UHGV virus genome: UHGV-0210057
Source of the DNA: a virus
Reading direction: 5' to 3' (one strand)
DNA: 39,294 bases
Shown here: positions 1 to 37,951 of the stretch, in pieces
How the letters are laid out: the number at the start of each line of letters is the position of its first letter
Numbering within the stretch: position 1 is the stretch's first letter
Notes under the pieces: generated by a model
The model's input: only the letters and a program-made list of their open reading frames with translations
The model's database searches: none
What the model was told of the DNA's origin: nothing
Made by a program: the position numbers and the translations under genes

Positions 1-12
1 ATTTCCATTTCA

Positions 13-25
13 CGCTCTTTAACAA
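13..25 (+). promoter_or_regulatory. BoxA-like antitermination element in the nutR position (downstream of cro across the window wrap)
   Basis: CGCTCTTTAACAA matches rrn BoxA (TGCTCTTTAACAA) at 12/13 and the lambda nut BoxA core CGCTCTT; no BoxB-like GC hairpin follows before the ATG at 70. Confidence 0.4.
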
Positions 26-69
26 TAAGCAATCAACTTAACAGTCAATTCAAACTAAAGGAGTCAATT

Positions 70-609
70 ATGCAACCACTTACATACCAACAGACTAGCG
101 GATTTAGCCCGACTGCGGTGATAAATCGTTCTCAAATAAAACAGGTGCCAGGCCACGAAAAAATCCGTGATGCCGTTCGCGCCTGGTCGGCTGCAGATAA
201 TCAGGATGTTGTTGCCGCACTCATTGTGAATGAGTATCGGGAGCAGGGCGGCGGCACCATCGATTTCCCTGATGATGTCAGCCGTGCACGCCAGAAGCTG
301 TTCCGCTTCCTCGATAACAAATTCGATTCTGAAAAATACCGAAATAACGTGCGTGAACTGACCCCGGCAATTCTGGCGGTACTACCGCTGGAATATCGCG
401 GCCACCTGGTTGAGCAGGATAGCTTCATGGCTCGGCTGGCTGAAATGGAAAAGGAACTCTGTGAGGCAAAGCAGGCGGTCATTCTCAACGCACCACGCCA
501 CCAGAAACTGAAGGAGATGAGTGAAGGCATTGTGTCGATGTTTCGAGTGGACCCGGATCTGGCTGGTCCATTGATGGCGATGGTCACCACCATGCTGGGG
601 GCAATATGA
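70..609 (+). CDS. Hypothetical early protein in the cII position, possibly YdaT-family
   Basis: 179-aa ORF with AAGGAG RBS 7 nt upstream; sits between cro (window end) and O; family assignment is from memory only. Confidence 0.5.
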   Translation: MQPLTYQQTSGFSPTAVINRSQIKQVPGHEKIRDAVRAWSAADNQDVVAALIVNEYREQGGGTIDFPDDVSRARQKLFRFLDNKFDSEKYRNNVRELTPAILAVLPLEYRGHLVEQDSFMARLAEMEKELCEAKQAVILNAPRHQKLKEMSEGIVSMFRVDPDLAGPLMAMVTTMLGAI

Positions 610-695
610 CAGGTTCAAAAATGGCGAAAGTCGGTCTGCGGGAACAGAACCGACTTTCAGGTGCAAATCGTAACACACTCATTGCGGGAGGAATT

Positions 696-1625
696 ATGGC
701 AAACACTGCTGAGATATTCAATTTTCCAGTGCCGGATGCGGCACAAAAGGAGCGGCGCGTGGCAGATCTCGATGATGGTTATACGCGCATTGCAAATGAG
801 TTGCTGGAAGCTGTGATGCTGGCCGGATTAACACAGCACCAGCTTCTGGTCTTCCTGGCTGTCATGCGCAAAACATATGGCTTTAATAAAAAACTGGATT
901 GGGTGAGCAACGAGCAACTTTCCGAGTTGACCGGGATATTGCCGCACAAGTGTTCTGCTGCAAAAAGTGTTCTGGTAAAGCGTGGGATTTTTATTCAGAG
1001 TGGGCGGAATATCGGCATTAATAATGTGGTCAGTGAATGGTCAACATTACCCGAATCAGGTAAGAAAAATAAAGTTTACCTGAAAGAGGTAAATTTACCT
1101 GAATCAGGTAAGAAAAGTTTACCCAAATCAGGTAAAGGCGTTTACCCGAATCAGGTAAACACAAAAGACAAACTAACAAAAGACAATATAAAACCTTTTT
1201 CGTCCGAGAATTCTGGCGAATCCTCTGACCAGCCAGAAAACGACTTTCCTGTGGAGAAACTGGATGCTGCAATTCAGAGCGGCAGCAAGTGGGGGACAGC
1301 AGAAGACCTGACCGCCGCAGAGTGGATGTTTGACATGGTGAAGACTATCGCGCCATCAGCCAGAAAACCGAATTTTGCAGGGTGGGCTAACGATATCCGC
1401 CTGATGCGTGAACGTGACGGACGTAACCACCGCGACATGTGCGTGCTGTTCCGCTGGGCATGCCAGGACAACTTCTGGTCTGGTAACGTGCTGAGCCCGG
1501 CCAAACTTCGCGATAAGTGGACCCAGCTCGAAATCAACCGTAACAAGCAACAGGCTGGCGTGACAGTCAGCAAACCAAAACTCGACCTGACAAACATTGA
1601 CTGGATTTACGGGGTGGATCTATGA
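696..1625 (+). CDS. O: Lambda O-like replication initiator
   Basis: From MANTAEIFNF the protein aligns with lambda O N-terminus (VADLDDGY..RKTYG..SEW); GGGAGG RBS before ATG at 696; iterons embedded in the linker; stop overlaps P start. Confidence 0.9.
   Translation: MANTAEIFNFPVPDAAQKERRVADLDDGYTRIANELLEAVMLAGLTQHQLLVFLAVMRKTYGFNKKLDWVSNEQLSELTGILPHKCSAAKSVLVKRGIFIQSGRNIGINNVVSEWSTLPESGKKNKVYLKEVNLPESGKKSLPKSGKGVYPNQVNTKDKLTKDNIKPFSSENSGESSDQPENDFPVEKLDAAIQSGSKWGTAEDLTAAEWMFDMVKTIAPSARKPNFAGWANDIRLMRERDGRNHRDMCVLFRWACQDNFWSGNVLSPAKLRDKWTQLEINRNKQQAGVTVSKPKLDLTNIDWIYGVDL
1047..1159. repeat. Origin iterons (ori-lambda-like) inside the O gene
   Basis: Five 17-19 bp repeats of TTTACC(C/T)GAATCAGGTAA(A/G), each an internal palindrome (TTACC..GGTAA), at about 1047-1063, 1075-1093, 1094-1112, 1118-1136, 1141-1159, followed by an AT-rich stretch; they encode the repeated LPESGKK motif. 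Confidence 0.8.
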
Positions 1626-2323
1626 AAAACATCGCCGTACAGATGGTTAACTTTGACCGTGAGCAGATGCGCCGGATCGCCAACAACATGCCGGAACATT
1701 ATGACGAAAAGCCGCAGGTACAGCAGGTAGCGCAGATCATCAACGGTGTGTTCAGCCAGTTGCTGGCAACTTTCCCGGCGAGCCTGGCTAACCGTGACCA
1801 GAACGAACTGAACGAAATTCGCCGCCAGTGGGTTCTGGCTTTCCGGGAAAACGGGATCACCACAATGGAACAGGTTAACGCAGGAATGCGCGTAGCCCGT
1901 CGGCAGAATCGACCATTCCTGCCATCACCCGGGCAGTTTGTCGCCTGGTGCCGGGAAGAAGCATCCGTTAACGCCGGGCTGCCAAACGTCAGCGAGTTGG
2001 TTGATATGGTTTACGAGTATTGCCGGAAGCGTGGCCTGTATCCGGATGCAGAGTCTTATCCGTGGAAATCGAACGCGCATTACTGGTTGGTTACCAACTT
2101 GTACCAGAACATGCGGGCCAATGCGCTGACTGACGCGGAATTACGGCGCAAGGCTGCCGATGAACTGACCTGTATGACAGCGCGAATTAACCGTGGTGAG
2201 ACGATACCTGAACCAGTAAAACAACTTCCTGTTATGGGCGGTAGACCTCTAAATCGTGCACAGGCTCTGGCGAAGATCGCAGAAATCAAAGCTAAGTTTG
2301 GGCTGAAAGGAGCAAGGGTATGA
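1622..2323 (+). CDS. P: Lambda P-like replication protein (DnaB helicase loader)
   Basis: 233 aa, near-identical along its length to lambda P as recalled (MKNIA.QMVNFDREQMRRIANNMPE...); ATGA overlap with O stop. Confidence 0.95.
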   Translation: MKNIAVQMVNFDREQMRRIANNMPEHYDEKPQVQQVAQIINGVFSQLLATFPASLANRDQNELNEIRRQWVLAFRENGITTMEQVNAGMRVARRQNRPFLPSPGQFVAWCREEASVNAGLPNVSELVDMVYEYCRKRGLYPDAESYPWKSNAHYWLVTNLYQNMRANALTDAELRRKAADELTCMTARINRGETIPEPVKQLPVMGGRPLNRAQALAKIAEIKAKFGLKGARV

Positions 2324-2622
2324 CGGGCAAAGAGGCAATTATTCATTACCTGGGGACTCATAAGAACTTCTGTGCGCAGGACGTTGCCGTGGTAACAGGC
2401 GCAACCGTAACCAGCATAAATCAGGCTGCGGCTAAAATGGCACGGGCAGGTCTTCTGGTTATCGAAGGTAAGGTCTGGCGAACGGTGTATTACCGGTTTG
2501 CTACTAGGGAAGAACGGGAAGGAAAGATGAGCACGAACCTGATTTTTAAGGAGTGTCGCCAGAGTGCCGCGATGAAACGGGTATTGAGGGTATATAAAAG
2601 AACATCAATGGGTACACAATGA
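2320..2622 (+). CDS. ren: Ren-like protein
   Basis: 100 aa beginning MTGKEAIIHYLGTH, matching lambda Ren as recalled; directly follows P with overlap. Confidence 0.85.
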   Translation: MTGKEAIIHYLGTHKNFCAQDVAVVTGATVTSINQAAAKMARAGLLVIEGKVWRTVYYRFATREEREGKMSTNLIFKECRQSAAMKRVLRVYKRTSMGTQ

Positions 2623-2689
2623 TGAAACAGATGAGTTGAGTTCAAACTGTAGTACAATTCTCTCCAGTTTGAACAGGAAAGAATATGCT

Positions 2690-3022
2690 ATGAATCCTTA
2701 TATTTATCTTGGTGGTGCAATACTTGCAGAGGTCATTGGTACAACCTTAATGAAGTTTTCAGAAGGTTTTACACGGTTATGGCCATCTGTTGGTACAATT
2801 ATTTGTTATTGTGCATCATTCTGGTTATTAGCTCAGACGCTGGCTTATATTCCTACAGGGATTGCTTATGCTATCTGGTCAGGAGTCGGTATTGTCCTGA
2901 TTAGCTTACTATCATGGGGATTTTTCGGCCAACGGCTGGACCTGCCAGCTATTATAGGCATGATGTTGATTTGTGCCGGTGTGTTGGTTATTAATTTATT
3001 TTCACGAAGCACACCACATTAA
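2690..3022 (+). CDS. emrE: SMR-family multidrug efflux transporter EmrE
   Basis: 110 aa from MNPYIYLGGAILAEVIGTTLMKFSEGF, four predicted TM helices; same position as emrE in the DLP12 prophage; AT-rich relative to neighbours. Confidence 0.85.
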   Translation: MNPYIYLGGAILAEVIGTTLMKFSEGFTRLWPSVGTIICYCASFWLLAQTLAYIPTGIAYAIWSGVGIVLISLLSWGFFGQRLDLPAIIGMMLICAGVLVINLFSRSTPH

Positions 3023-3055
3023 AAATAATTTCTTTTGAATCGAGTGAAATAGGTT

Positions 3056-3082
3056 AGCCCGCATAAGTGCGGGCTGCTTTTT
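3056..3082. terminator. Rho-independent terminator after emrE (bidirectional, shared with the convergent esterase gene)
   Basis: AGCCCGCA-TAAG-TGCGGGCT hairpin followed by GCTTTTT; the T-run overlaps the esterase stop codon. Confidence 0.6.
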
Positions 3083-4124
3083 ACAGGTCAGCGTTTGTTT
3101 TTTGTTGTTGGGTAGCGGTTTTTATGGGGGTTCCCAGTTTTTTAGTAAACCACTCAACAACTCTGTTTATAATAATTGGCTGATACCATGTATTATCGCC
3201 ATGCTCAGCCCCTTCTACCAGAACGTACTCAGCGTTATCGCCGTTCTTCTTCAACATCCTGAATAGTTTGGCGCTTTGCTCAGGTGAAACCAGAGTGTCT
3301 TTGCTACCATGCATAATAAGAAATGGGGGTTTTACTCCTTTCATATGTCCGATTGGACTGGCGTTTAGCGCTTTTTCTTTTGACGCTGTTATGGGGGCTC
3401 CCGCAAAACTTCTGAATGCAGGGCCATTGATCATTAAGGCTTCGGTTACGGCAGGAGATCGATGAACCTCCTGCACAGATTCAGGGAACCCCTCGCCAAT
3501 ATTCAACAAGTCAGAAATCCCATAAAGTGTGGCAACTGCCTGAACATCTGCTGATTGCTGAAGAAAGTCACCTTTATCAAAGGTTTTGTCACCATTTGTA
3601 GTTCCCATCATCTGGGCAAGCCATCCACCGGCAGAGTCACCCAGAACTCCGATTCTTTGAGGATCAATCCCATAATCGCTGGCATGTTCTCTCAAGTAAC
3701 GTATTGCAGCTTTCCCATCCTCAACTGGTGCTGGAAATGTATCAGGAATTGTTCTGTATTCTACAGCGGCCACAACAAAACCAGCTTCAGCCAGAGCCAT
3801 TCTCATTTCAATAAATTTGTCATGTTCAGAAGACATGAATCCGCCGCCGGGATAATAAATAATGGCTGGTTTTAAATCATTTGTTCGTGGGACAAGAACT
3901 GACATGTGAAGCTGTCTGACAGAACGAGTTCCTTTTATCTGGGAATAAACAACATCACCAATGAGATCGACCTGGTTTCTGGTCGGTGAAACACTAATGA
4001 TATCTGCACCCGGGGTGTAACCAGGAAGATTAGTCTGGACAGGTGTTGCACAACTCCCGACCGACATGGCCATTGACATACCATACAATAGTGTTGCAGA
4101 TGATAATATCTTGTTAATTTTCAT
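3081..4124 (-). CDS. Secreted or lipoprotein alpha/beta-hydrolase (esterase/lipase-like)
   Basis: 347 aa; N-terminal signal peptide with possible lipobox (MSMAMSVGSC); GDSAGG nucleophile motif and HGSKD; opposite strand to flanking phage genes with its own terminator (moron organisation). Confidence 0.75.
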   Translation of the reverse strand: MKINKILSSATLLYGMSMAMSVGSCATPVQTNLPGYTPGADIISVSPTRNQVDLIGDVVYSQIKGTRSVRQLHMSVLVPRTNDLKPAIIYYPGGGFMSSEHDKFIEMRMALAEAGFVVAAVEYRTIPDTFPAPVEDGKAAIRYLREHASDYGIDPQRIGVLGDSAGGWLAQMMGTTNGDKTFDKGDFLQQSADVQAVATLYGISDLLNIGEGFPESVQEVHRSPAVTEALMINGPAFRSFAGAPITASKEKALNASPIGHMKGVKPPFLIMHGSKDTLVSPEQSAKLFRMLKKNGDNAEYVLVEGAEHGDNTWYQPIIINRVVEWFTKKLGTPIKTATQQQKTNADL

Positions 4125-4571
4125 GTTTTACATGCCTTGACTTATCGGATGAAATTCTCTTACTGAATTTAACGGCAGTTTAATAGCCGTACAACTCGTG
4201 GTAGCTAGGGAAATATCCCAGTCGTGGTTAAGGTTGTACTTGACGGCTATTATTTCAACAATGCTTAAAGTGAGAGCTTAAGGTTATGCGTATGTTTTAC
4301 AGTCCGAGTAGATTCTGACCAATAGCTTCTTTGTATGATTCTGTCAGAAATAAATCTTGGCTTGCATGAAGTTTGAGACCTTATCTTGTTTGATTATGAA
4401 TAATCAATTCGCCATAATTGTATCACCGGAGCCTGAACAACTTCGGTGACTTCTGCGCTAAACGGGGACGTTTATGCGCACACACAATCCAAACTCTCTT
4501 CTCCCTTCACAGATGCAGAAATGCACCTGCGTTTTTTTGCATCCAGCGTCTGACCTCTGTGGAGGTGAAGC

Positions 4572-5027
4572 GTGAACCTACCACAAGATGGCATCAAACT
4601 GCATCGCGGTAACTTCACCGCTATCGGTCAGCAGATCCAGCCTTATCTGGAGGACGGCAAATGCTTTCGCATGGTGCTTAAACCGTGGCGCGAGAGACGC
4701 AGTCTTTCCCAGAATGCACTTAGCCACATGTGGTACAGCGAAATCAGTGAATACCTCATAAGCAGGGGGAAATCGTTCGCTACTGCAGCATGGGTAAAAG
4801 ATGCTCTCAAACACACATACCTCGGTTATGAAACCAAAGACCTGGTTGATGTCGTAACCGGTGAAATCACCACTATTCAGTCGTTACGCCATACCTCCGA
4901 TCTTGATACCGGAGAGATGTATGTCTTCCTGTGTAAGGTTGAAGCCTGGGCGATGAATATTGGCTGCCACCTGACTATTCCGCCGAGCTGCGAGTTCCAG
5001 CTGCTGCGCGACAAGCAGGAGGCGTAA
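4572..5027 (+). CDS. ybcN: NinB-family recombination protein (YbcN-like)
   Basis: 151 aa, GTG start with GGAGG RBS; [15 protein letters not shown]... and RSLSQN motif match DLP12 YbcN / lambda NinB as recalled. Confidence 0.8.
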
Positions 5028-5197
5028 TGGCTACACCGATTATTCGTGTCATGAACGGGCACATTTACAGAGTACCAAATCGTCGTAAGCGTAAACCTGA
5101 GCTGAAGCCTTCCGAAATACCAACACTGCTCGGATATACCGCCAGCCTGGTTGATAAAAAATGGTTGCGACTGGCAGCAAGGAGGAATCATGGCTGA
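5027..5197 (+). CDS. ninE: NinE-like protein
   Basis: 56-aa ORF (below the ORF-track cutoff) [32 protein letters not shown]..., translated by hand; TAATG overlap with ybcN stop. Confidence 0.7.
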   Translation: MATPIIRVMNGHIYRVPNRRKRKPELKPSEIPTLLGYTASLVDKKWLRLAARRNHG

Positions 5198-5480
5198 TTT
5201 GAGAAAAGCAGCGCGTGGTCGGGAATGCCAGGTAAGAATCCCTGGCGTATGTAATGGCAACCCTGAAACGTCTGTACTGGCACATATCCGGCTGGCTGGA
5301 TTGTGCGGCACCGGTATTAAACCGCCAGACCTTATTGCCACCATTGCCTGTTCTGCCTGTCACGACGAAATCGACCGCCGCACGCATTTTGTCGATGCTG
5401 AGTACGCAAAAGAATGCGCGCTGGAAGGTATGGCGAGAACGCAGGTTATCTGGCTGAAAGAGGGGGTAATCAAGGCGTGA
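5190..5480 (+). CDS. ybcO: YbcO-like (DUF1364) putative nuclease
   Basis: 96 aa from [23 protein letters not shown]... with Cys-rich motif; ATGGCTGA overlap with ninE stop. Confidence 0.75.
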
Positions 5481-5839
5481 ATACTTACCACATCACACTA
5501 CCCTGGCCGCCGAGCAATAACCGCTACTACAGGCATAATCGCGGGCGCACGCACATCAGCGCAGAAGGGCAGGCATACCGTGATAACGTCGCCCGAATCA
5601 TTAAAGGCTCAATGCTGGATATCGGTCTGGCTATGCCTGTGAAAATCCGCATTGAGTGCCACATGCCGGATCGCCGTCGCCGTGACCTGGATAATCTGCA
5701 AAAAGCCGCTTTTGACGCACTCACTAAAGCAGGTTTCTGGCTGGATGATGAGCTGGTCGTTGATTACCGCGTTGTGAAGATGCCTGTTACCAAAGGTGGG
5801 AAGCTGGAACTGACCACTACTGAACTGGGAGATGAATGA
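5477..5839 (+). CDS. rusA: RusA Holliday-junction resolvase
   Basis: 120 aa from a GTG start ([26 protein letters not shown]...), near-identical to E. coli RusA as recalled; GTGA overlap with ybcO stop. Confidence 0.85.
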
Positions 5840-5934
5840 TGTTTGAGTCTTATATGGCAGAACGTCTTCGCCGCCGCTGGGTGCGCCTGCGCTTATATCG
5901 TTTTATTGATTTTTGCTGGCAATTGGCGTGCTAG
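5836..5934 (+). CDS. Small YlcG-like ORF
   Basis: 32-aa [35 protein letters not shown] overlapping the rusA stop, in the DLP12 ylcG position; too short to be certain. Confidence 0.4.
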
Positions 5935-5957
5935 CCTGATTTTTGTGGGGAAAGTTG

Positions 5958-6341
5958 ATGCGTGATATTCAGATGGTTCTTGAGCGTTGGGGGGCATGGG
6001 CGGCTAATAACCACGAGGATGTAACCTGGTCATCCATTGCTGCCGGTTTTAAGGGATTAATTCCTTCAAAAGTAAAGTCTCGCCCACAATGCTGTGATGA
6101 TGACGCGATGATTGTTTGTGGATGTATGGCTCGCCTGAAAAAGAACAATAGCTATTTGCATGATTTACTAGTGGATTATTATGTCGGGGGTATGACATTT
6201 ATGTCACTGGCAAGTAAGCATTGTTGCTCTGATGGTTATATCGGGAAAAAGTTACAGAAGGCTGAGGGAATAATTGAAGGGATGTTAATGGCATTAGATA
6301 TACGGTTAGAGATGGATATCGTTGTTACTAAGTCTAATTAA
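5958..6341 (+). CDS. quuD: Late-gene antiterminator Q (phage 82/21 QuuD-like)
   Basis: 127 aa from [22 protein letters not shown]... with Cys-rich zinc-binding region; located after the nin genes and before the lysis genes. Confidence 0.8.
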
Positions 6342-6366
6342 TACGCTAATTATTTACTAAGTGTTA

Positions 6367-6393
6367 TTAAAAAAGGGGCGTAGAAACGCCCCC
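6367..6393 (-). terminator. Intrinsic terminator for the convergent porin transcript
   Basis: GGGGCG-TAGAAA-CGCCCC hairpin; on the minus strand it is followed by a TTTTTT run. Confidence 0.5.
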
Positions 6394-6482
6394 AAAAATA
6401 AAGGGTAATATATAACAGAAGGTTTATATAGTCAGAAGCAAGGTAGTGCTTCTAAAGGAAGTGGCTTGAGGGAGCCACTTAT

Positions 6483-6520
6483 ATGTTGGGGAGGCAAAGC
6501 CTCCCGCAACATATCTTTTT
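6483..6520 (+). terminator. Intrinsic terminator downstream of Q (tR'-like position)
   Basis: ATGTTGGGGAGGC-AAA-GCCTCCC(G)CAACAT extended hairpin followed by ATCTTTTT, about 140-180 nt after the Q stop, the spacing expected for a PR'-to-tR' leader. Confidence 0.5.
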
Positions 6521-6530
6521 CGTAACCAGA

Positions 6531-7628
6531 TTAGAACTGGTAAACCAGTCCTACGGCAACGATGTCGTCAGTGCTTACACCAAGTGCTTTAGTGAAGTCG
6601 TTTTTGTCAAGCAGGTTGATCTTGTAATCAACGAAAGTAGACATGTTTTTGTTGAAGTAATAAGTTGCACCTACATCAACATATTTGACTAAGTCCTGAT
6701 CGCCCCATACTCCAAGATCCTTACCTTTAGATTGCAGGTAAGCAACGGACGGACGCAGACCGAAATCGAACTGATATTGTGCAACAGCTTCGAAGTTTTG
6801 AGCTTTATTAGCAACGAAGTGATCAGCAAATACAGTCATATTCTGGGTTTCAGAATAGGTAGTGGCCAGGTAAATGTTGTTAGCGTCATATTTCAGACCT
6901 GCGGCCCAAATTTCTGCATTTTTACCGGAAGCAAATACTTCAGGAAGAACTTTGCCTGCATTGACTTGAGTGTCGGTACGATCAGATTTCGCATAAGTCG
7001 CACCAATGCCGAATCCTTCGTATTCATAGGTAGCAGAGAAACCGAATCCATCACCGTTACCTTCGGTGTAGTTATCGAAATCGCTACGATCGTTTTTACC
7101 TTGGTACTGAGCAGCAAAGTTCAGACCATCAACCAGACCAAAGAAGTCGTTGTTACGGTAAGTTGCAACACCAGTTGCACGTTGAGTCATGAACACGTCG
7201 GTTTGAGTCCAAGTATCACCACCGAATTCTGGCAGGACGTCAGTCCACGCACCGATGTCGTATGCTACACCGTAGTTACGACCGTAATCGATGGAACCGT
7301 AGTCACCGAATTTCAGGCCTGCAAATGCAAGACGGGTTTTGTCTTTGGCGGAACCTTGAGATTCAGCGCGGTTGCCTTTGAATTCATATTCCCACTGACC
7401 GAAACCAGTCAGTTGATCGTTGATTTGGGTTTCACCTTTGAAGCCCAGACGAACATAAGTAGTATCACCATCATCTGCATCGTTAGAGGAAAAGTAGTGC
7501 TTGGCATTAACTTTCCCGTACAGATCCAGCTTGTTACTGTCTTTATTATAAATTTCAGCTGCCTGAGCAGACATCGCCATCAGTACTGATGCAGCTACAG
7601 CAGAAATTGCCACTGTTAATTTTTTCAT
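6531..7628 (-). CDS. nmpC: OmpC-family general porin (NmpC/Lc-like), apparently intact
   Basis: 365 aa from [23 protein letters not shown] signal peptide; AEIYNKD..LDLYGK start, porin motifs and C-terminal ...VGLVYQF; same position and orientation as nmpC in DLP12. Confidence 0.9.
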
Positions 7629-7706
7629 CGTGAGCCCTTTTTTTGAACTATTATTAAAAAATGATGTCACTGCGCGATAAATATTCATCTAATCAATATG
7701 ATTATT

Positions 7707-8753
7707 TCAAGATGTTGTATGGGTCCACCACATATTGCAATTTTTATTCTCTTTTAAAATATATTCCACGGGCGTCATTAGTGCGAGCGCCTTGTGGGGT
7801 CTTTTGCTGTTATACAGCACCAGATATTCCGCCAGCTTCTGGTTAAATAGCGCCAGATCTTCAAAGAGTAAAATCTCATTAAATTCAATAAACTGCTCTC
7901 TTAACGTCCGGTTAAAACGTTCACAGATAGCGTTCATTTTTGGCGTGTAGGGATAGGTCCAGAGGTGTTTGATAGCGGCTTCCTGCAGCGTTTTGTCGAA
8001 GTTTCCCAGGAACTCTTTTCCGTTATCTGTGATTATCTGGCTGATACCGACCGGGAACAACCGGGCTGCGCGGCTGAAGAAGTGATTGACGATATCACTG
8101 TTGAGTGACGGCACAGCCAGCGCCAGCGCGTAATTGCTGCATTCGTCGATCATGGTGATGACATAGCGACGCAGTTCGCCCATTCTGAGCTCAATGGCGT
8201 CCATCCCAATGAGCTCACCTGTCTTTACCGGGCGGTAGTGCTTTGGCCTGCGGGGTTTGGCAGACCGCTTTTTGACAAGCAGTGCCTTCCCCCGCGATCC
8301 CAGACGCACAGGTATCATCCGCATTTTATCATGTGCGGCAGCGATCATTCTGCCGATGGTGGAAACACTCGGACAGGCCAGATAGCGCTGTTCGCACCAG
8401 GGCTTCAGGCGAACAAAAATCTGCTCTTTACCGAGGTTCGGCAGCTCTGTCCTGAGGCGTCGAATCTCTTTCAGCACATCGGGATGCCAGTGTTTTTTTC
8501 GTCGCACCAGAGGTGCCTTACTGTGCGGGATTAGCCCCTCAGGTCCTTCCTTGTTCAGTAACTGACGCCACCAGTAAAGCGTGCGGCAGGACACGCCAAA
8601 GGCTTCAGAAGCTGCAGAAATACCGTGTTTATCCCAGAAGTGCAGAGCCTTCATTCTCATTGTTGCTATATCAGCCATCACTGAAAGCCTCAACGCATAA
8701 TCGGCCGTTTGGTAGTACTTAGGATAGCCAACCATCAGATGCTGCATTTGCAT
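7707..8753 (-). CDS. IS transposase (single ORF with N-terminal HTH and rve/DDE integrase core; IS481-family-like)
   Basis: 348 aa; rve-type catalytic region (ITDNGKEF...YTPKMNAICERFNRTLREQ...YNSKRPHKAL); AAGGGGAG RBS before the start. Confidence 0.8.
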   Translation of the reverse strand: MQMQHLMVGYPKYYQTADYALRLSVMADIATMRMKALHFWDKHGISAASEAFGVSCRTLYWWRQLLNKEGPEGLIPHSKAPLVRRKKHWHPDVLKEIRRLRTELPNLGKEQIFVRLKPWCEQRYLACPSVSTIGRMIAAAHDKMRMIPVRLGSRGKALLVKKRSAKPRRPKHYRPVKTGELIGMDAIELRMGELRRYVITMIDECSNYALALAVPSLNSDIVNHFFSRAARLFPVGISQIITDNGKEFLGNFDKTLQEAAIKHLWTYPYTPKMNAICERFNRTLREQFIEFNEILLFEDLALFNQKLAEYLVLYNSKRPHKALALMTPVEYILKENKNCNMWWTHTTS

Positions 8754-8815
8754 AGTGCAATCTCCCCTTACTTATCCGGAGGCAATTGCAATATCTCTGT
8801 GAACTTACACAGATG
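7711..8815 (-). mobile_element. Insertion sequence (IS481-family-like), boundaries approximate
   Basis: Imperfect terminal inverted repeats with identical 11-bp core ATATTGCAATT at 7732-7742 and its reverse complement at 8784-8794; element about 1.1 kb with one transposase ORF; exact ends and target-site duplication not resolved. Confidence 0.55.
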
Positions 8816-9316
8816 TAAGTTTTAGTTTCTCATTTAATTTGTGAAGTAGATCTCTATTTTTATCTGAACTTTTTCTATCGAAACCTATTTATGGCTCTTA
8901 TTTGAACAAAAATAAACCTATTAGCTAATTTATATTAATGGCTGTTATTTATGGTGGTTCTATAATTCGGAAGTTTAATTTAAATCAACTAAAAATAACG
9001 TCGGAAATTATTTATTGGTTATTTGTTGAGGTTTTCTTATGTATTTGTGGTGGTGTTTTGAACACTCGGTAGCATTCTCATAAATATCATTCAGTGGTTT
9101 ACGTACGTAAAAAATTGGTTATGCTGTTAAGAGTGGTTACTTCGTCACACAGCTTAAACCCGCCGTCGAGCTGGTTTTTCCATTTTTTGAGTCTCGATAT
9201 TAGCTGATAACTCAATACCTGAGTTATTCATTGACTCCGAGTCTGTTACGTTTCTGCTTTTTTGCGATACGTTGTATTCCCTCAATTTACACCCGCTTTG
9301 TCTGCGAGGTGGGGTT

Positions 9317-9532
9317 ATGAAATCCATGGATAAGTTAACAACGGGTGTCGCCTATGGCACCTCAGCAGGTAGTGCCGGTTACTGGTTTTTACAGCTGCTC
9401 GATAAAGTCACGCCCTCACAGTGGGCAGCAATAGGTGTGCTGGGTAGCCTGGTATTTGGCCTGCTGACGTACCTGACAAACCTTTATTTCAAGATTAAAG
9501 AAGATAAGCGCAAGGCTGCGAGAGGTGAATAA
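9317..9532 (+). CDS. essD: Class II holin (pinholin, phage 21 S21-like) with dual-start motif
   Basis: 71 aa MKSMDK... with two TM segments; Met1 and Met4 give an antiholin/holin pair; GAGGTGGGG RBS; stop overlaps the endolysin start. Confidence 0.85.
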
Positions 9533-10029
9533 TGCCTCCATCATTACGAAAAGCCGTTGCTGCTGCTATTGGTGGCGGAGCAATTGCTATAGCATCAGTG
9601 TTAATTACTGGCCCAAGTGGTAACGATGGTCTGGAAGGTGTCAGCTACATACCATACAAAGATATTGTTGGTGTATGGACTGTATGTCACGGGCATACAG
9701 GAAAAGACATCATGCTCGGTAAAACGTATACCAAAGCAGAATGCAAAGCACTCTTGAATAAAGACCTTGCCACTGTCGCCAGACAAATTAACCCGTACAT
9801 CAAAGTCGATATACCGGAAACAACGCGCGGCGCTCTTTACTCATTCGTTTACAACGTGGGTGCTGGCAATTTCAGAACATCGACGCTTCTTCGCAAAATA
9901 AACCAGGGTGATATCAAAGGCGCATGTGATCAGCTACGTCGCTGGACATATGCTGGCGGTAAGCAATGGAAAGGTCTCATGACTCGTCGTGAGATTGAGC
10001 GTGAAATCTGTTTGTGGGGTCAGCAATGA
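9532..10029 (+). CDS. rrrD: SAR endolysin (T4-lysozyme-like, phage 21 R-like)
   Basis: 165 aa; N-terminal Gly/Ala-rich signal-anchor-release segment ([18 protein letters not shown]) followed by a lysozyme catalytic region (EG..Y.D..GV.T.C.GHT). Confidence 0.85.
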
Positions 10030-10463
10030 ACAGAGTAACCACGATTATCTCCGCTCTGGTTATCTGCATCATCGTCTGCCTGTCATGGGCTGTTAATCAT
10101 TACCGTGATAACGCCATCGCCTACAAAGAGCAGCGTGATAAGGCCGCATCCATTATCGCTGACATGCAGAAACGGCAACATGATGTAGCAGAACTCGACG
10201 CCAGATACACAAAGGAGCTTGCTGATGCTAACGCGACTATCGAAAGTCTCCGTGCTGATGTTTCTGCTGGTCGTAAACGCCTGCAAGTCGCCGCCACCTG
10301 TGCAAAGTCAACGACCGGAGCCAGCAGCATGGGCGATGGAGAAAGCCCAGGACTTACAGCAGATGCTGAACTCAATTATTACCGTCTCCGAAGTGGAATC
10401 GACAAGATAACCGCGCAGGTTAACTACCTGCAGGAATACATCAGGACGCAATGCCTGAAATAA
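10026..10463 (+). CDS. rzpD: Rz i-spanin
   Basis: 145 aa from [18 protein letters not shown] (N-terminal TM) with coiled-coil periplasmic region; ATGA overlap with the endolysin stop. Confidence 0.8.
10219..10410 (+). CDS. rzoD: Rz1 o-spanin lipoprotein, embedded in the +1 frame of Rz
   Basis: Small ORF wholly inside Rz with lipobox (LLVVNAC) and proline-rich segment ([13 protein letters not shown]); exact start codon uncertain. Confidence 0.65.
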
Positions 10464-10664: not shown

Positions 10665-11435
10665 ATGAAATCATTAACCCTCTTCAATCAACCAATTCGT
10701 ATCGGTGAAGATGGCATGATCTGCCTCACTGATATGTGGAAAGCCAGTGGTAAAAGTGAATCTGAATCGCCTTACCACTACCTGCGAAACAAGCAGACCA
10801 AAGAGTTCTTAGCCGAGCTGGAGAAAAACCACGAATCTGTGGTTTTTACTGAGCGCGGTGTACACGGTGGAACATATGGCGGGAAGTTTGTTGCTTACGA
10901 TTATGCGGCTTGGTTAAACCCCGGGTTCAAGTACGCGGCCTATAAAGTCCTCGATGACTACTTCACCGGAGAACTTCAGCATCGCAACAGCTTAAGTGCG
11001 CAGCTCAACATGAAATGTCATGAGTTTGACCAGAAGAAAGACATGGCGAGCTTCTGCGGACAAGGGCTGGCAGCATGGCGCTATACGAAGCCAGTGTTGG
11101 TCGCTGAGATTAACTCCCTGGCTAACCAGCTGCAGATTACGATCCCCCGGGCTTCCGGGATGAGTGATCGTGTCATTGAATGCGCCTCCAGAGCGGGGCG
11201 CGACTTCTCAGAGTTCATGAAAGGCGAGAAGGGCATGATGGAAGCATTGGCCTCGGTGGATGAGTTTGGCGAGCAGCTGCGCCTCAACGGCTGTGTCAAT
11301 CATCACTTTGTTAGCTACATGATGCGGAACTCGATCATGCAGGCATTCATGGACATGGCAAAAGCCGAGAGGAAAGAAGAGCGCCGGCGTAAGCGAGCGG
11401 AAGCAAAAGCAAAAGCAAAAGCAAAAGTGAAGTAG
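10665..11435 (+). CDS. KilA-N domain protein (antirepressor-like) with C-terminal (AK)n tail
   Basis: 256 aa; N-terminal KilA-N-type motif (ICLTDMWKASGKS..PYHYLRNKQTKEFL); basic C-terminus ending AEAKAKAKAKVK. Confidence 0.7.
   Translation: MKSLTLFNQPIRIGEDGMICLTDMWKASGKSESESPYHYLRNKQTKEFLAELEKNHESVVFTERGVHGGTYGGKFVAYDYAAWLNPGFKYAAYKVLDDYFTGELQHRNSLSAQLNMKCHEFDQKKDMASFCGQGLAAWRYTKPVLVAEINSLANQLQITIPRASGMSDRVIECASRAGRDFSEFMKGEKGMMEALASVDEFGEQLRLNGCVNHHFVSYMMRNSIMQAFMDMAKAERKEERRRKRAEAKAKAKAKVK
11403..11426 (+). repeat. Tandem hexanucleotide repeat (GCAAAA)x4 at the 3' end of the KilA-N gene
   Basis: Four perfect GCAAAA units encoding AKAKAKAK; a 6-nt unit changes length in frame only. Confidence 0.85.
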
Positions 11436-11730
11436 CCATTACAAAGCCCATTTACGGGTGGGCTTGATAATGAAACCGGAATTTATTCTGGGCCACCAGT
11501 TAACGGCAGTACCACGAAACAACCCAAGCCAGTAAGTGGGGAAATAACACTGGCAGCCACTGAAAGATGAAGCTCCTGCCTTAAGGCAAAAAAGATTCTT
11601 TGTGGTGGCGGACTGATGGAAAGACATCGGTTATTGCAGAGGCCATTCAATGAGTGGTCTCGACAATGGCTTATACCCTACACGGGATAACTTAACTGAT
11701 ATCCCTTTTAACGGATAAACGGAGCCAACA

Positions 11731-12740: not shown

Positions 12741-13268
12741 ATGGCACTCACCGACAAGCAAGAGATGTTCTGTCGCGAGTACCTCATCGATTTAAATGCC
12801 ACGCAAGCGGCTATTCGGGCGGGGTACAGCGCAAAGACAGCTAACCGTACCGCATCCGAAAACCTGTCAAAACCTGACATCAAGTTAAGAATCTCCGAAC
12901 TGAAAGCGCAACGCAATGATCTTGTTGGTATTAATGCAGAATATGTACTTAACCGCCTTATTGAAATCGACCAGATGGATGTGCTCGACATTCTCCTGCA
13001 AAACGGTGAGTTAAAGCCCATTAAAGACTGGCCTAAGGTATGGCGCACAACGCTATCAGGAATGGATGTCGTGGAGATGGTATCCGCAGATAGTGCCGCA
13101 CTTCTGAAGAAAATCAAATGGCCTGATAAGGTCAAAAACCTCGAACTTCTTGGTAAGCATGTTTCCGTTCAGGCATTTAAAGAACAAGCTTCTCACGAGC
13201 TAACCGGTAAAGACGGCGGCGCAATCCAGATTGAAACATCACCGATGAGCACTCTATTCGGAAAATGA
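12741..13268 (+). CDS. Terminase small subunit
   Basis: 175 aa; N-terminus MALTDKQEMFCREYLIDLNATQAAIRAGYS is the conserved terminase small-subunit HTH motif; ATGA overlap with TerL. Confidence 0.85.
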   Translation: MALTDKQEMFCREYLIDLNATQAAIRAGYSAKTANRTASENLSKPDIKLRISELKAQRNDLVGINAEYVLNRLIEIDQMDVLDILLQNGELKPIKDWPKVWRTTLSGMDVVEMVSADSAALLKKIKWPDKVKNLELLGKHVSVQAFKEQASHELTGKDGGAIQIETSPMSTLFGK

Positions 13269-14677
13269 CCTCGATTAATCCTATCTTTGAACCGTTCATT
13301 GAGGCGCATCGCTACAAAGTCGCCAAAGGCGGTCGAGGTAGCGGTAAGTCATGGGCAATTGCGAGGCTGCTTGTTGAAGCGGCGCGCCGGCAGCCTGTGC
13401 GCATCCTCTGTGCTCGTGAACTGCAAAACAGTATCAGCGATTCGGTAATCCGGTTGCTTGAAGACACCATAGAGCGGGAAGGGTATTCGGCTGAGTTTGA
13501 AATTCAGCGTTCCATGATTCGTCATCTCGGAACGAATGCCGAATTCATGTTCTACGGCATCAAAAACAACCCGACAAAGATTAAATCGCTCGAAGGTATT
13601 GATATCTGCTGGGTGGAGGAAGCGGAAGCGGTAACGAAGGAATCGTGGGATATCCTGATACCAACCATCCGTAAGCCGTTCTCTGAAATATGGGTAAGCT
13701 TCAACCCGAAAAACATCCTCGACGATACCTATCAGCGATTCGTCGTAAACCCTCCTGATGATATTTGTCTGCTGACGGTGAACTACACCGACAACCCGCA
13801 CTTTCCTGAAGTTCTCCGTCTGGAGATGGAAGAGTGTAAACGCAGAAATCCGACACTGTATCGTCACATCTGGCTTGGTGAGCCAGTAAGCGCAAGTGAT
13901 ATGGCAATCATCAAACGTGAATGGCTTGAAGCCGCAACCGATGCGCACAAGAAACTCGGATGGAAAGCGAAAGGCGCTGTTGTCTCTGCGCATGACCCGT
14001 CAGATACAGGACCAGATGCTAAAGGTTATGCATCGCGTCACGGTTCGGTAGTTAAGCGCATTGCCGAAGGTCTGCTGATGGACATCAACGAGGGTGCTGA
14101 CTGGGCTACTTCGCTGGCGATTGAAGACGGCGCTGACCACTACCTGTGGGATGGTGATGGTGTTGGTGCTGGGCTACGCAGACAGACAACGGAAGCGTTC
14201 TCCGGCAAGAAAATCACCGCCACGATGTTCAAGGGCAGCGAATCGCCATTCGATGAAGATGCTCCGTATCAGGCCGGAGCATGGGCTGATGAAGTCGTAC
14301 AGGGCGACAACGTTCGCACTATTGGCGATGTATTCCGCAATAAGCGAGCGCAATTCTATTACGCGCTCGCTGACAGGCTGTATCTGACATATCGGGCGGT
14401 TGTTCACGGTGAGTATGCAGACCCCGACGACATGCTGAGTTTCGACAAAGAAGCGATAGGCGAGAAGATGCTGGAGAAGCTGTTTGCAGAACTGACGCAG
14501 ATTCAGCGCAAATTCAATAACAACGGGAAGCTGGAGCTAATGACTAAGGTCGAAATGAAGCAGAAGCTCGGCATTCCATCTCCTAACCTGGCTGATGCGC
14601 TAATGATGTGTATGCATTGCCCGGCATTGGTCCGCGAAGAAACTGAAATATACGTTCCCTCATCCTCCGGTTGGTAA
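13265..14677 (+). CDS. Terminase large subunit
   Basis: 470 aa; Walker A ATPase motif KGGRGSGKS near the N-terminus; position between TerS and portal. Confidence 0.9.
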   Translation: MTSINPIFEPFIEAHRYKVAKGGRGSGKSWAIARLLVEAARRQPVRILCARELQNSISDSVIRLLEDTIEREGYSAEFEIQRSMIRHLGTNAEFMFYGIKNNPTKIKSLEGIDICWVEEAEAVTKESWDILIPTIRKPFSEIWVSFNPKNILDDTYQRFVVNPPDDICLLTVNYTDNPHFPEVLRLEMEECKRRNPTLYRHIWLGEPVSASDMAIIKREWLEAATDAHKKLGWKAKGAVVSAHDPSDTGPDAKGYASRHGSVVKRIAEGLLMDINEGADWATSLAIEDGADHYLWDGDGVGAGLRRQTTEAFSGKKITATMFKGSESPFDEDAPYQAGAWADEVVQGDNVRTIGDVFRNKRAQFYYALADRLYLTYRAVVHGEYADPDDMLSFDKEAIGEKMLEKLFAELTQIQRKFNNNGKLELMTKVEMKQKLGIPSPNLADALMMCMHCPALVREETEIYVPSSSGW

Positions 14678-14679
14678 AC

Positions 14680-16806
14680 ATGGCTGAGACATTAGAGAAA
14701 AAACATGAGCGGATCATGCTCAGGTTTGACCGCGCCTATTCTCCACAGCAGGAAGTGCGCGAAAAGTGCATTGAAGCTACGAGGTTTGCTCGTGTCCCCG
14801 GAGGTCAATGGGAAGGAGCAACGGCGGCTGGAACTAAGCTTGATGAGCAGTTCGAGAAGTATCCTAAGTTTGAAATCAATAAGGTAGCAACTGAACTTAA
14901 CCGCATCATTGCAGAATACCGCAATAACAGAATCACCGTTAAGTTTCGTCCTGGTGACAGAGAGGCAAGCGAAGAGTTAGCCAATAAATTAAATGGTCTG
15001 TTCCGTGCTGACTACGAAGAAACTGATGGCGGTGAGGCTTGCGATAATGCATTTGACGACGCTGCTACTGGTGGTTTCGGTTGCTTCCGTTTGACGTCGA
15101 TGCTGGTCAATGAATACGACCCCATGGACGATCGTCAGCGTATTGCTATTGAACCAATATACGACCCGTCGCGCTCTGTGTGGTTTGACCCTGACGCTAA
15201 GAAGTACGACAAATCTGACGCGTTGTGGGCGTTCTGCATGTATTCGTTGTCACCTGAAAAATATGAGGCTGAATACGGAAAGAAACCTCCTGCTTCTCTG
15301 GATGTAACGTCTATGACCAGTTGGGAATATGACTGGTTTGATGCAGATGTTATTTACATAGCGAAGTATTACGAAGTTCGTAAAGAGTCTGTTGACGTCA
15401 TCAGTTATCGACATCCAATCACTGGAGAGATTGCAACATACGACAGTGATCAGGTTGAAGATATTGAAGATGAACTGGCAATAGCTGGATTTCAGGAAGT
15501 GGCAAGGCGCTCAGTGAAGCGCCGTCGTGTGTATGTATCCGTAGTGGATGGTGATGGTTTCCTTGAGAAACCTCGACGTATTCCTGGTGAGCATATCCCC
15601 CTCATCCCGGTTTATGGAAAACGCTGGTTCATTGATGACATTGAGCGTGTCGAAGGACATATTGCAAAAGCAATGGATCCACAGCGTTTGTATAACCTTC
15701 AGGTATCAATGCTGGCTGATACTGCAGCGCAAGACCCCGGTCAGATCCCTATAGTTGGCATGGAGCAAATTCGTGGACTTGAGAAGCACTGGGAGGCTCG
15801 CAACAAGAAACGCCCAGCGTTCTTGCCGTTGCGCGAAGTGAGAGATAAATCTGGCAACATTATCGCTGGAGCTACCCCGGCAGGATATACACAGCCTGCG
15901 GTTATGAATCAGGCATTGGCTGCATTACTACAGCAAACCAGTGCTGATATTCAGGAGGTTACAGGCGGCAGTCAGGCCATGCAGCAGATGCCAAGTAATA
16001 TTGCTCAGGAAACGGTTAACAACTTGATGAACAGAGCAGATATGGCTTCGTTTATCTATCTGGACAATATGGCGAAAAGTCTTAAACGCGCTGGTGAAGT
16101 ATGGCTGTCAATGGCGCGTGAAGTGTACGGTTCAGAGCGTGAAGTGCGCATCGTTAACGAAGATGGAAGTGATGATATCGCTGTCCTGAGCGCACAGGTT
16201 GTTGACAGGCAAACAGGGGCTGTTGTTGCGTTAAATGACCTTTCTGTCGGTCGATACGATGTGACGGTTGATGTTGGACCAAGCTACACAGCACGACGTG
16301 ATGCAACGGTTTCTGTACTGACAAATGTCCTTAGCTCTATGCTTCCAACAGACCCAATGCGCCCGGCAATTCAGGGTATTATTCTGGACAATATCGATGG
16401 CGAAGGCCTTGATGACTTCAAAGAGTACAACCGAAACCAACTGCTGATATCTGGTATTGCAAAACCACGCAATGAGAAAGAGCAGCAGATTGTTCAACAG
16501 GCGCAAATGGCAGCACAAAGCCAGCCAAATCCTGAAATGGTTCTCGCTCAGGCGCAAATGGTAGCAGCGCAGGCAGAAGCGCAAAAAGCAACTAACGAAA
16601 CCGCTCAAACTCAAATCAAAGCATTTACTGCCCAGCAGGATGCGATGGAGAGTCAGGCAAACACTGTCTATAAACTGGCTCAAGCCAGAAACATCGATGA
16701 CAAAGCAGTGATGGAGGCAATACGCCTTCTGAAAGATGTCGCCGAGTCACAACAACAGCAATTCCAGTCACCACCACAGTCACCGGCAGACTTAATGCCG
16801 AGTTAA
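14680..16806 (+). CDS. Portal protein (P22 gp1-like)
   Basis: About 708 aa from MAETLEKK; KRRRVY...GEHIP.IPV.G block matches the P22 portal as recalled; Q/A-rich C-terminal tail. Confidence 0.9.
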   Translation: MAETLEKKHERIMLRFDRAYSPQQEVREKCIEATRFARVPGGQWEGATAAGTKLDEQFEKYPKFEINKVATELNRIIAEYRNNRITVKFRPGDREASEELANKLNGLFRADYEETDGGEACDNAFDDAATGGFGCFRLTSMLVNEYDPMDDRQRIAIEPIYDPSRSVWFDPDAKKYDKSDALWAFCMYSLSPEKYEAEYGKKPPASLDVTSMTSWEYDWFDADVIYIAKYYEVRKESVDVISYRHPITGEIATYDSDQVEDIEDELAIAGFQEVARRSVKRRRVYVSVVDGDGFLEKPRRIPGEHIPLIPVYGKRWFIDDIERVEGHIAKAMDPQRLYNLQVSMLADTAAQDPGQIPIVGMEQIRGLEKHWEARNKKRPAFLPLREVRDKSGNIIAGATPAGYTQPAVMNQALAALLQQTSADIQEVTGGSQAMQQMPSNIAQETVNNLMNRADMASFIYLDNMAKSLKRAGEVWLSMAREVYGSEREVRIVNEDGSDDIAVLSAQVVDRQTGAVVALNDLSVGRYDVTVDVGPSYTARRDATVSVLTNVLSSMLPTDPMRPAIQGIILDNIDGEGLDDFKEYNRNQLLISGIAKPRNEKEQQIVQQAQMAAQSQPNPEMVLAQAQMVAAQAEAQKATNETAQTQIKAFTAQQDAMESQANTVYKLAQARNIDDKAVMEAIRLLKDVAESQQQQFQSPPQSPADLMPS

Positions 16807-16819
16807 CCAGGAGTAATCA

Positions 16820-17704
16820 ATGGAAAACGAACTGATCATCGACGGTCAGGTTATTGACCTGTCTGAAACACAGGAAAATGCAGAAGAAACCATCATCCAA
16901 ACAGAGTCACAGCCTGAGAATGAAAGCCAGGATGACAACGGAAAAGAGATGGCAACTGATCCTGAAAAAACCGAAGAGACACCAGAAGATTACGCCTTGC
17001 GTATTGGTGATGAAGAAATTCAGCTTAACGCTGACGATGATGATCACATTGACGGGCAGCCTGCACCGCAATGGGTGAAAGATCTTCGCAAAGGCTTCAA
17101 AGAAACACAGAAAGAAAACCGTGAGTTGCGCCGCCAGCTTGAGGAAGCATTAGCCAAGCCTGCGGAACATCAGCAACCACAACCAGACGCTATTCCACCA
17201 AAACCGACTCTTGAGTCGTGTGATTATGACGAACAGGCGTTTGAACAGGCATTGACTGATTGGCATGAGAAAAAAGGCCGTGTCGAACAGCAGCAGCAAC
17301 AAAAACTACGTCAGCAACAGGAATACCAACAGCGTTTCCAGCAAAGGGTAGAAGCGCATAAACAACGGGCAGCCAAACTTCCTGTGAAAGATTATCAGGA
17401 AATGGAGGCCATTGTTCTTAGTGAGCTACCACCAATTCAGCAGGAAATCATCATTCACTGTGCAGATGAAGGCTCTGAACTACTCGCCTATGGCTTAGGT
17501 AAGAGCCAGCAATTACGCCAGCGTGTAGCCGCTGAGACAGATCCAATTCGCGCAGCATTCCTCTTGGGGCAGATTAGCAAACAGGTAAGCCTTGCTCCAA
17601 AACCAAAGAAAGCCATCAAGCCAGAGCCGGAAGTACGTGGTGGCGGTGCTGATGCGAAACAAGACGAATTCAACAAATTATGCCCCGGCGCAAAAATCGA
17701 ATAA
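16820..17704 (+). CDS. Scaffolding protein (P22 gp8-like)
   Basis: 294 aa, acidic N-terminus and Q/E-rich predicted coiled coil; position between portal and coat. Confidence 0.7.
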   Translation: MENELIIDGQVIDLSETQENAEETIIQTESQPENESQDDNGKEMATDPEKTEETPEDYALRIGDEEIQLNADDDDHIDGQPAPQWVKDLRKGFKETQKENRELRRQLEEALAKPAEHQQPQPDAIPPKPTLESCDYDEQAFEQALTDWHEKKGRVEQQQQQKLRQQQEYQQRFQQRVEAHKQRAAKLPVKDYQEMEAIVLSELPPIQQEIIIHCADEGSELLAYGLGKSQQLRQRVAAETDPIRAAFLLGQISKQVSLAPKPKKAIKPEPEVRGGGADAKQDEFNKLCPGAKIE

Positions 17705-17715
17705 GGAAAAGATAA

Positions 17716-32401: not shown

Positions 32402-32526
32402 TTTTTACCCGTCATGGAGTGCGGCTGTCAACGATCTGACGCGAACCATTACGAACTGTTAATCTACGGAAGACTTGATATTCAGGGGATTTTACGGACT
32501 GGTACGGATGGGAGCGAACTGATAAA

Positions 32527-32541
32527 TGGTGTCCCCTGCAG
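32527..32541 (-). other. Candidate attP core resembling a tRNA 3' end (argW-like)
   Basis: Minus strand reads CTGCAGGGGACACCA (acceptor-stem 3' strand, discriminator and CCA), matching my recollection of the argW tRNA-Arg(CCU) 3' end; lies in the 213-bp gap between alpA and int. Confidence 0.5.
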
Positions 32542-32614
32542 ACATCTACTTGAAGCAGCAGGGGATTGATTGGAATGGTGTTTTTTAGATGTGAAAAATA
32601 TTTTACCCGCTATT

Positions 32615-34893: not shown

Positions 34894-34991
34894 CTTCCAT
34901 TAATCCCTGAATTGTTGGTTAATACGCTTGAGGGTGAATGCGAATAATAAAAAAGGAGCCTGTAGCTCCCTGATGATTTTGCTTTTCATGT

Positions 34992-35273: not shown

Positions 35274-35283
35274 TCAGTGGTTG

Positions 35284-37089: not shown

Positions 37090-37094
37090 TCGTT

Positions 37095-37391: not shown

Positions 37392-37467
37392 GGCTGAACT
37401 CCTGAAAATGGCTGTGAAAATAGCGCCCGCGAAATGCCAGGCTGATTAGGAAAACAGGAAAGGGGGG

Positions 37468-37945: not shown

Positions 37946-37951
37946 GAACTT

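Follow-up and report, generated by a model that had tools for sequence, protein, structure and literature searches.

An emrE efflux gene as a probable functional cargo module after ren in a complete-looking HK620-like phage genome

The gene at positions 2690 to 3022 of the virus genome UHGV-0210057 is very probably a functional emrE cargo module, placed after ren in a complete-looking HK620-like phage and deliverable to new hosts by lysogeny (the window, here and below, is the whole stretch of 39,294 nucleotides that we analysed). Phage carriage of emrE after ren is already known, and is ordinary. The novelty implied in an earlier note on this DNA does not hold, since emrE has already been published in functional temperate coliphages; only two details look new, namely the HK620-type virion chassis and an IS481-family element in the late-operon leader. 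The region around the gene reads:

606..1625, replication gene O
1622..2323, replication gene P, ahead of ren
2320..2622, plus strand, ren, the last gene of the replication block
2623..2689, plus strand, emrE leader of 67 bp with the Shine-Dalgarno sequence AGGAAAG at 2675-2681
2690..3022, plus strand, emrE coding sequence, 110 amino acids and a stop codon, an SMR-family proton/drug antiporter
3055..3082, plus strand, intrinsic terminator after emrE (stem 3055..3076, T-run 3078..3082)
3081..4124, minus strand, BD-FAE-type alpha/beta hydrolase, a cargo gene convergent with emrE

The open reading frame runs on the plus strand from an ATG at 2690 to a TAA at 3020-3022, and its product begins MNPYIYLGG. 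A phmmer search of PDB chains matched it to EmrE (3b5d and others) over residues 1-110 with E = 3.8e-69, and 108 of the 110 residues are identical to those of crystallised E. coli EmrE, the only differences being I100V and L104F. The protein scored 121.5 bits with the Pfam model Multi_Drug_Res (PF00893; threshold 23.7, E = 2.1e-35), 239 bits with NCBIfam SMR_efflux_EmrE, for which the curated cut-off is 226, and 238.8 with the EmrE subfamily model (cut-off 162); with the NCBIfam Qac, SugE and MdtIJ models it stayed far under every cut-off (for QacE, 87 bits against 185). As size criterion for EmrE we used about 105-120 amino acids with four transmembrane helices; the product has 110, and its hydropathy profile contains four hydrophobic segments, at about residues 3-21, 32-54, 58-80 and 83-106. 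The gene had been described, from its letters alone, as encoding a four-helix EmrE of this length, and this description is borne out. Glu14, whose conservation had been proposed as a check, is present (...GGAILAEVIG...), and G17, T18, Y40, F44, L47, Y60, W63, G65, G67, G90, G97 and H110 are also kept. We take Glu14 to be the membrane-embedded residue of TM1 that binds proton and substrate, Y40, Y60 and W63 to be aromatic residues of the binding pocket, and G90 and G97 to form the glycine packing motif of TM4. EmrE is an antiparallel homodimer in which protons and one cationic substrate bind in alternation to the two Glu14 residues; it exports cationic aromatic or quaternary-ammonium substrates from the cytoplasm to the periplasm, driven by the proton gradient; the tolerance phenotype is well established for K-12 EmrE. 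Judged by its sequence, the emrE of the window is an intact and presumably functional copy of the E. coli gene and, because of the 98% identity to the characterised protein, efflux of and tolerance to ethidium, methyl viologen and quaternary ammonium compounds would be expected.

The gene occupies a variable position immediately behind ren, on the left border of the nin region in the lambdoid early-right operon. The upstream gene is about 96% identical at the nucleotide level to the P-ren region of phages 434 and 21, where the corresponding gene is annotated as Ren and where the match to the window stops at ren, and this identity upholds the earlier placement of emrE after ren, as in the DLP12 prophage of K-12. 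The ren protein, which matched no Pfam or NCBIfam model, is 100% identical to the product of the gene preceding emrE in prophages. The HK620-like prophages TB06053 and 13TMH22, with the same replication genes, are without emrE; as cargo behind ren, one has a TagO-like gene and the other two hypothetical genes. As it is absent after ren in phages 434 and 21 and in these HK620-like prophages, emrE is, by this comparison, a dispensable insert. In one of the ten contexts read for the exact allele (L009) an outer-membrane-protein gene is inserted ahead of emrE. It is already known that lambdoid phages exchange membrane and defence cargo at the site following ren, and equally known that cargo modules cross virion types through the shared early region. 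The composition of the gene is also as had been claimed, AT-rich compared with the replication genes: emrE has a GC content of 0.402 and a GC3 of 0.315, against 0.536 and 0.598 for P and 0.509 and 0.592 for ybcN, with a GC content of 0.488 for ren and of 0.464 for the whole window.

A second natural allele group has an emrE of about 92% DNA identity and 98% protein identity to that of the window, and in 2284 complete genomes the best emrE match falls in the 90-95% identity band. In FORC_043 (L015, 7001..8860), the sole example inspected, the gene belongs to a three-gene island, emrE-ybcL-ybcM, that is flanked by fliE and yedF and holds no phage genes. The window and the 92% allele differ at 25 synonymous and two non-synonymous positions (dN/dS 0.02), and the EmrE protein is, by this measure, under strong purifying selection in whatever context. 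V100 is the common state and the I100 of K-12 the exception, while F104, at the end of TM4, is confined to the allele of the window. Upstream of the ATG, the homology between the fliE-island allele and the window extends for about 70 bp only, from the position of the ren stop codon, with other DNA further upstream. Because this homology begins at the ren stop codon, we take the mobile unit to consist of the 67-bp leader, the coding sequence and the terminator-bearing tail, and emrE is, as aligned here, a self-contained cargo module of about 460 bp. The leader is also conserved in K-12, in Rb-50 and in phage 4A7.

The terminator hairpin that had been attributed to the gene was found at its 3' side, as a 9-bp GC-rich stem followed by CTTTTT, of about -17 kcal/mol, with the U-run on the plus strand only. 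It lies within the 58-bp spacer between emrE and the convergent hydrolase gene, the stop codon of which (3081-3083) overlaps the T-run. A diverged copy of the same hairpin and T-run element follows emrE in K-12 and in phage 4A7. The terminator belongs with emrE, since an element of about 60 bp spans from the last emrE codons through the hairpin and the T-run. This element starts with CCNCATTAA, and the window (3014..3082) has the single-copy form; in 4A7 (L016) two diverged copies, at 9325..9420 and 11400..11484, flank a ylcJ-ybcK (serine recombinase) segment. In both 4A7 and K-12, ylcJ-ybcK stands between emrE and the following genes; the flanking copies in 4A7, beside the single copy in the window, suggest that it is an insertion or deletion unit at this site. 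The hydrolase (Pfam BD-FAE, 1.5e-44) has a signal- or lipobox-like sequence at its N-terminus (…SVGSC).

How common the arrangement is can be read from several collections. We found emrE in 12 phage records at 98.2-98.8% nucleotide identity, several of them annotated as EmrE or QacE: 4A7 (two records), Lambda_4C10, 1W, 3W, D2 (truncated), Perceval, Turner, PhiR34_1, PhiR47_2, PhiR68_2 and PhiR70_1. EmrE was described by Mathieu et al. 2020 in two lambda-like phages that form plaques (PMC6969025), and a survey of intact prophages in urinary E. coli ranked emrE first among resistance genes by frequency, with 47 prophages (PMC10101464). In the assembly collection, 276 blocks contain the exact EmrE protein allele of the window; all ten contexts that were read have an O-P-(ren)-emrE-hydrolase cassette, with the hydrolase adjoining emrE, attached to packaging genes of the lambda or HK97 type. 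In IMG/VR, 26 contigs contain the first 45 bases of the gene. Among 5426 complete E. coli genomes, 3693 (68%) carry emrE, in up to three copies, and one only of the 4162 places in which it stands is on a plasmid. None of the 11 phage records with an HK620-type coat gene is among the 12 emrE records, and P22-like TerL, portal or coat genes were seen near emrE in none of the 36 fetched loci, which is weak evidence of rarity because the flanks were short. Recombination in the shared early region has been demonstrated for lambda and DLP12 (PMC3945230), and the HK620-type chassis for emrE is a minor extension, readily explained by such recombination. The finding of emrE here thus adds little, as the same position is documented in functional coliphages and some two in three complete E. 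coli genomes already have the gene; screens of viromes for resistance genes will go on flagging emrE as 'phage-encoded resistance', with a low clinical weight.

The carrier is a mosaic in which a DLP12-type early-right arm is joined to the virion genes of an HK620/Sf6-like podovirus. Its main modules outside the emrE region are:

12741..29655, plus strand, packaging, head, ejection and tailspike genes of the HK620/Sf6 type (P22-like), all full length
31208..32815, minus strand, integrase (31211..32365), attP core of 16 bp (32526..32541) and TorI-like excisionase (32618..32815)
38270..39294, immunity region, with CI (38270..38959, minus strand) and a YdaS/Cro-like gene (39064..39294, plus strand)

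Positions 1..10289 and 33826..39294 are 98% identical to the lambda-type prophage of Rb-50, and the first 10 kb or so match phage 4A7 at 94%. Among phage records and complete E. coli genomes, none matches as much as 80% of the first 25 kb. On the right the genes stand in the order YdaT-O-P-ren-emrE-hydrolase-ybcN-ninE-ybcO-rusA-Q-porin-lysis, and on the left in the order exo-bet-gam-kil-CI-cro; the window closes with the cro stop codon, and its beginning leads into YdaT (70..609), in an order that matches Rb-50. When HK620 proteins were searched by tblastn, TerL, portal, scaffold and coat matched end to end at 99%, gp4 at 99%, gp10 at 98.5% and gp14 at 96.7%. The genes for gp26, gp7, gp20, gp16 and the tailspike are intact and of normal length but match HK620 over their N-terminal parts only, gp26, gp7, gp20 and gp16 being more diverged, and TerS is present (Pfam Terminase_2). 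The tailspike (27319..29655, plus strand) has in common with HK620 only the head-binding domain, residues 1-115, and its receptor specificity therefore differs. Between the tailspike and int stands an Acyl_transf_3 membrane acyltransferase gene (29715..30893, minus strand), a candidate O-antigen-modifying (serotype-converting) gene. At 10665..11435 the HK620 genes hkbK (KilA-N) and hkbL are fused into one open reading frame of 256 amino acids.

The segment from int through attP to torI is colinear with HK620 at 96.3%, with int 98% and TorI 100% identical. In TB06053, a relative that is integrated, this segment is split: one half is found at attR beside a tRNA-Arg gene and the other at attL, and the 16 bp in which they overlap served to place the attP core. 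As int, attP and xis stand in the unintegrated arrangement, the window is the excised, circularly permuted form. A tRNA scan of the whole window found none. The CI protein is of the cleavable type, with a Peptidase_S24 domain (Pfam, 1.2e-18) and HTH_3, the cro gene product matches YdaS_toxin/P22_Cro, and a palindromic operator overlaps TTGACT at 39001..39025. We found no plausible N-like antiterminator reading frame between kil and CI. This kil-CI slot (37760..38270) is empty in the window; in close relatives (L003, L004, L005, L017) it holds SIR2_2, HipA-like and DUF3037, a PP2C phosphatase with a Ser/Thr kinase, or DUF6414. With its 39,294 bp the genome is similar in size to those of HK620, Sf6, Gally and HF4s (38.3-39.4 kb), and from its gene content the carrier looks like a complete, argW-integrating, SOS-inducible temperate phage of the HK620 type.

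Downstream of Q the window contains:

6531..7628, minus strand, OmpC/NmpC-like porin, an intact cargo gene (Pfam Porin_1, 2.1e-156; NCBIfam porin OmpC subfamily)
7716..8810, minus strand, IS481-family insertion sequence of 1095 bp, with the transposase at 7707..8753
9317..10463, plus strand, lysis cassette, with an essD-like holin (9317..9532), endolysin (9532..10029) and spanin (10014..10463)

The porin gene corresponds to K-12 nmpC, but is whole where nmpC is interrupted by IS5. The IS481-family element, the ends of which were read directly, is bounded by a 6-bp target duplication (AGATGT at 7710-7715 and 8811-8816) and lies 88 bp upstream of the porin start codon, in the late-operon leader between Q and the holin gene. 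It breaks otherwise colinear alignments and is absent in all relatives compared (Rb-50, K-12 and L007); its transposase scored 221.6 bits with the NCBIfam IS481 model, for which the cut-off is 224, and has rve domains. The exact junction of the element gave no match in IMG/VR. The element may alter porin expression or reduce late transcription. The lysis cassette has 98.7% gap-free identity to essD-rrrD-lysis of the Rb-50 prophage, with intact reading frames. That the phage is apparently complete and potentially inducible, as had been proposed, is a fair reading: the structural genes, int-attP-xis, the S24 CI and the lysis genes are intact and the IS481-family element is the sole irregularity. 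On these grounds the phage is likely viable.

Lysogeny would deliver emrE, together with the esterase, the porin and the O-antigen acyltransferase, to a new host. On induction emrE would be transcribed with the early operon, by read-through from pR, and in the lysogen a low level of transcription would probably start from a weak promoter in the leader. The terminator would insulate the convergent hydrolase gene, and is probably one of the nin-region terminators ahead of Q. Since 68% of complete E. coli genomes already carry emrE, lysogeny would often merely add a second copy; the gain in tolerance would be modest and would count chiefly where emrE is missing, as in a third of complete E. coli genomes, or through gene dosage. 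Of this scheme we infer the expression in the lysogen, the modest gain in tolerance and the viability of the phage.

The point at which this reading is most exposed is the promoter. A strict sigma-70 scan of the gap between ren and emrE found no match at 9 or more of the 12 consensus positions, and a strong promoter of its own for emrE was rejected on that result. The best candidate of a relaxed scan was ATGAGT-16-TACAAT, a weak one with 8 of 12 positions, which ends at 2658 inside a perfect 10-bp palindrome. The arms of this palindrome, GTTCAAACTG (2640-2649) and CAGTTTGAAC (2665-2674), stand around TACAAT (2653-2658) and before the ribosome-binding site of emrE. They are kept in K-12 and phage 4A7, and one arm has an uncompensated mismatch in the 92% allele. 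As an RNA structure the palindrome was rejected, both for this mismatch and for a fold energy no better than that of shuffled sequences (z = -0.6); it may serve as an operator. Since guanidine riboswitches often control SMR genes, Rfam was searched over 2200..4700 at a permissive E-value; only sub-threshold noise came back, with MicC as the best hit (25 bits against 90), and a riboswitch or other leader RNA was discarded. The term moron, which the earlier note had used for emrE, is thus apt in part: the foreign composition, the terminator and the absence from the same site in relatives support it; as a promoter of its own, the conserved leader, which accompanies the gene into a non-phage context, offers one weak candidate with 8 of 12 positions. 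One may then ask whether emrE is a true moron or simply the tail of the pR operon, without its own promoter and transcribed during lytic growth or induction, so that a stable lysogen would gain no tolerance. We consider this unlikely, even if emrE is co-directional with cro-YdaT-O-P-ren and 67 bp from ren, no consensus promoter precedes it, and a genomic-SELEX paper writes '(renD-emrE)' for the K-12 unit and places H-NS binding close by (PMC3946193), so that emrE may need upstream transcription and may be silenced. The allele of the fliE-yedF island keeps the same leader of about 70 bp with unrelated DNA upstream and no ren, and is under strong purifying selection, which implies expression without pR. 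In addition, EmrE figures among the morons that Misson et al. 2023 report as expressed from prophage Perceval, and was induced in DMEM in an LF82 lysogen (PMC9928086). The movement of the leader with the gene into a context without ren and the report on Perceval argue for some autonomous expression of emrE.

Delivery by lysogeny also presupposes a working phage. It is quite improbable that the phage is defective or crippled, by the insertion sequence in the late leader or by an unseen lesion, and that emrE is inherited vertically or moves only by recombination with other phages. The 1095-bp element between Q/pR' and the holin gene has no counterpart in any compared relative, insertion sequences usually accumulate in resident prophages, and there is no N-like reading frame between kil and cI even though a terminator stands between emrE and Q. 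Against this, the order of the window is the excised, attP-containing, circularly permuted one and not that of a prophage; the homologues of HK620 structural genes, int, xis, CI, Cro, O, P, Q and the lysis genes are all full length; and the genome length suits an HK620-type capsid. In lambda, Q-modified polymerase normally reads through inserted DNA, and the functional phage 4A7 has the same order CI-cro-YdaT-O-P-ren-emrE-Q. Another question is what the pump is kept for. Retention for other physiology, such as export of betaine, choline or other natural cations under osmotic or alkaline stress, with resistance as a side effect, is conceivable if somewhat unlikely. The RefSeq product name in K-12 is 'multidrug/betaine/choline efflux transporter EmrE', the gene is strongly conserved and present in 68% of complete E. 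coli genomes regardless of source, and the induction in DMEM reported for Perceval was not by drugs. Such a role is, on the other side, compatible with the tolerance phenotype established for K-12 EmrE, and the sequence does not discriminate between them. To the preferred reading, that of a functional cargo module delivered by lysogeny, we add a bolder form only tentatively: that the module moved by early-region recombination from a siphovirus chassis of the lambda or HK97 type, the sole kinds on which it has so far been recorded, to an O-antigen-using, headful-packaging podovirus of the HK620/Sf6 type, and that it is driven by its leader in the repressed prophage and confers a measurable gain in tolerance to cationic biocides even beside a chromosomal emrE. 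If true, the pump would gain a wider host range and further routes of spread, by lysogeny and generalised transduction.

Among known systems, the DLP12 prophage of K-12 resembles the window in its emrE region. There emrE (b0543) has 98% protein identity, a ren gene upstream and an identical 67-bp leader, in the order peaD-renD-emrE, and ybcN-ninE-ybcO-rusA-Q-porin-lysis follows downstream as in the window; identity is near perfect from inside ren to about 30 bp past the emrE stop codon. In contrast to the window, DLP12 is defective, with renD interrupted by IS3 and nmpC by IS5 and without the structural genes, and ylcJ-ybcK-ybcL-ybcM follows emrE where the window has the hydrolase gene directly. 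In the window, ren and the porin gene are intact, the HK620-type virion module is full, and EmrE has the substitutions I100V and L104F.

Phage 4A7 shares the order CI-cro-YdaT-O-P-ren-emrE...hydrolase...Q-porin-lysis and an early-right arm of about 94% identity, but has ylcJ-ybcK between emrE and the hydrolase gene. The emrE-bearing coliphages (4A7, Lambda_4C10, 1W and others) are 44.6-50.1 kb long and, unlike the window, are without an HK620-type coat gene, a direct emrE-hydrolase junction or the insertion sequence. HK620, Sf6 and Gally (Lederbergvirus, integrating at argW) resemble the window in packaging, head, tail and ejection genes (96-99%), in int-attP-torI (96%) and in genome size, whereas HK620 has a DnaB-type P, a lambda-type immunity with N and another nin region, and is without emrE, hydrolase and porin. 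The Rb-50 prophage (NZ_AP025682.1) matches emrE at 100% of its nucleotides, ren-emrE-hydrolase at 99.8% and the early arms at 98%; the structural modules of Rb-50 and of the exact-allele blocks are, however, of the lambda type (Nu1/A) or HK97 type (HNH/TerS/TerL) and not P22-like, and no insertion sequence stands upstream of the porin. Near its left end the Rb-50 prophage (L001, 10422..11868) encodes a further exporter, a multidrug/biocide efflux transporter of the PACE family accompanied by a LysR regulator, so that one prophage bears two small biocide pumps. The plasmid- and integron-borne genes qacE, qacEdelta1, qacF/L and sugE share the family (PF00893) and the mechanism with the emrE of the window, but have specific NCBIfam cut-offs far above its scores, and emrE is almost never plasmid-borne.
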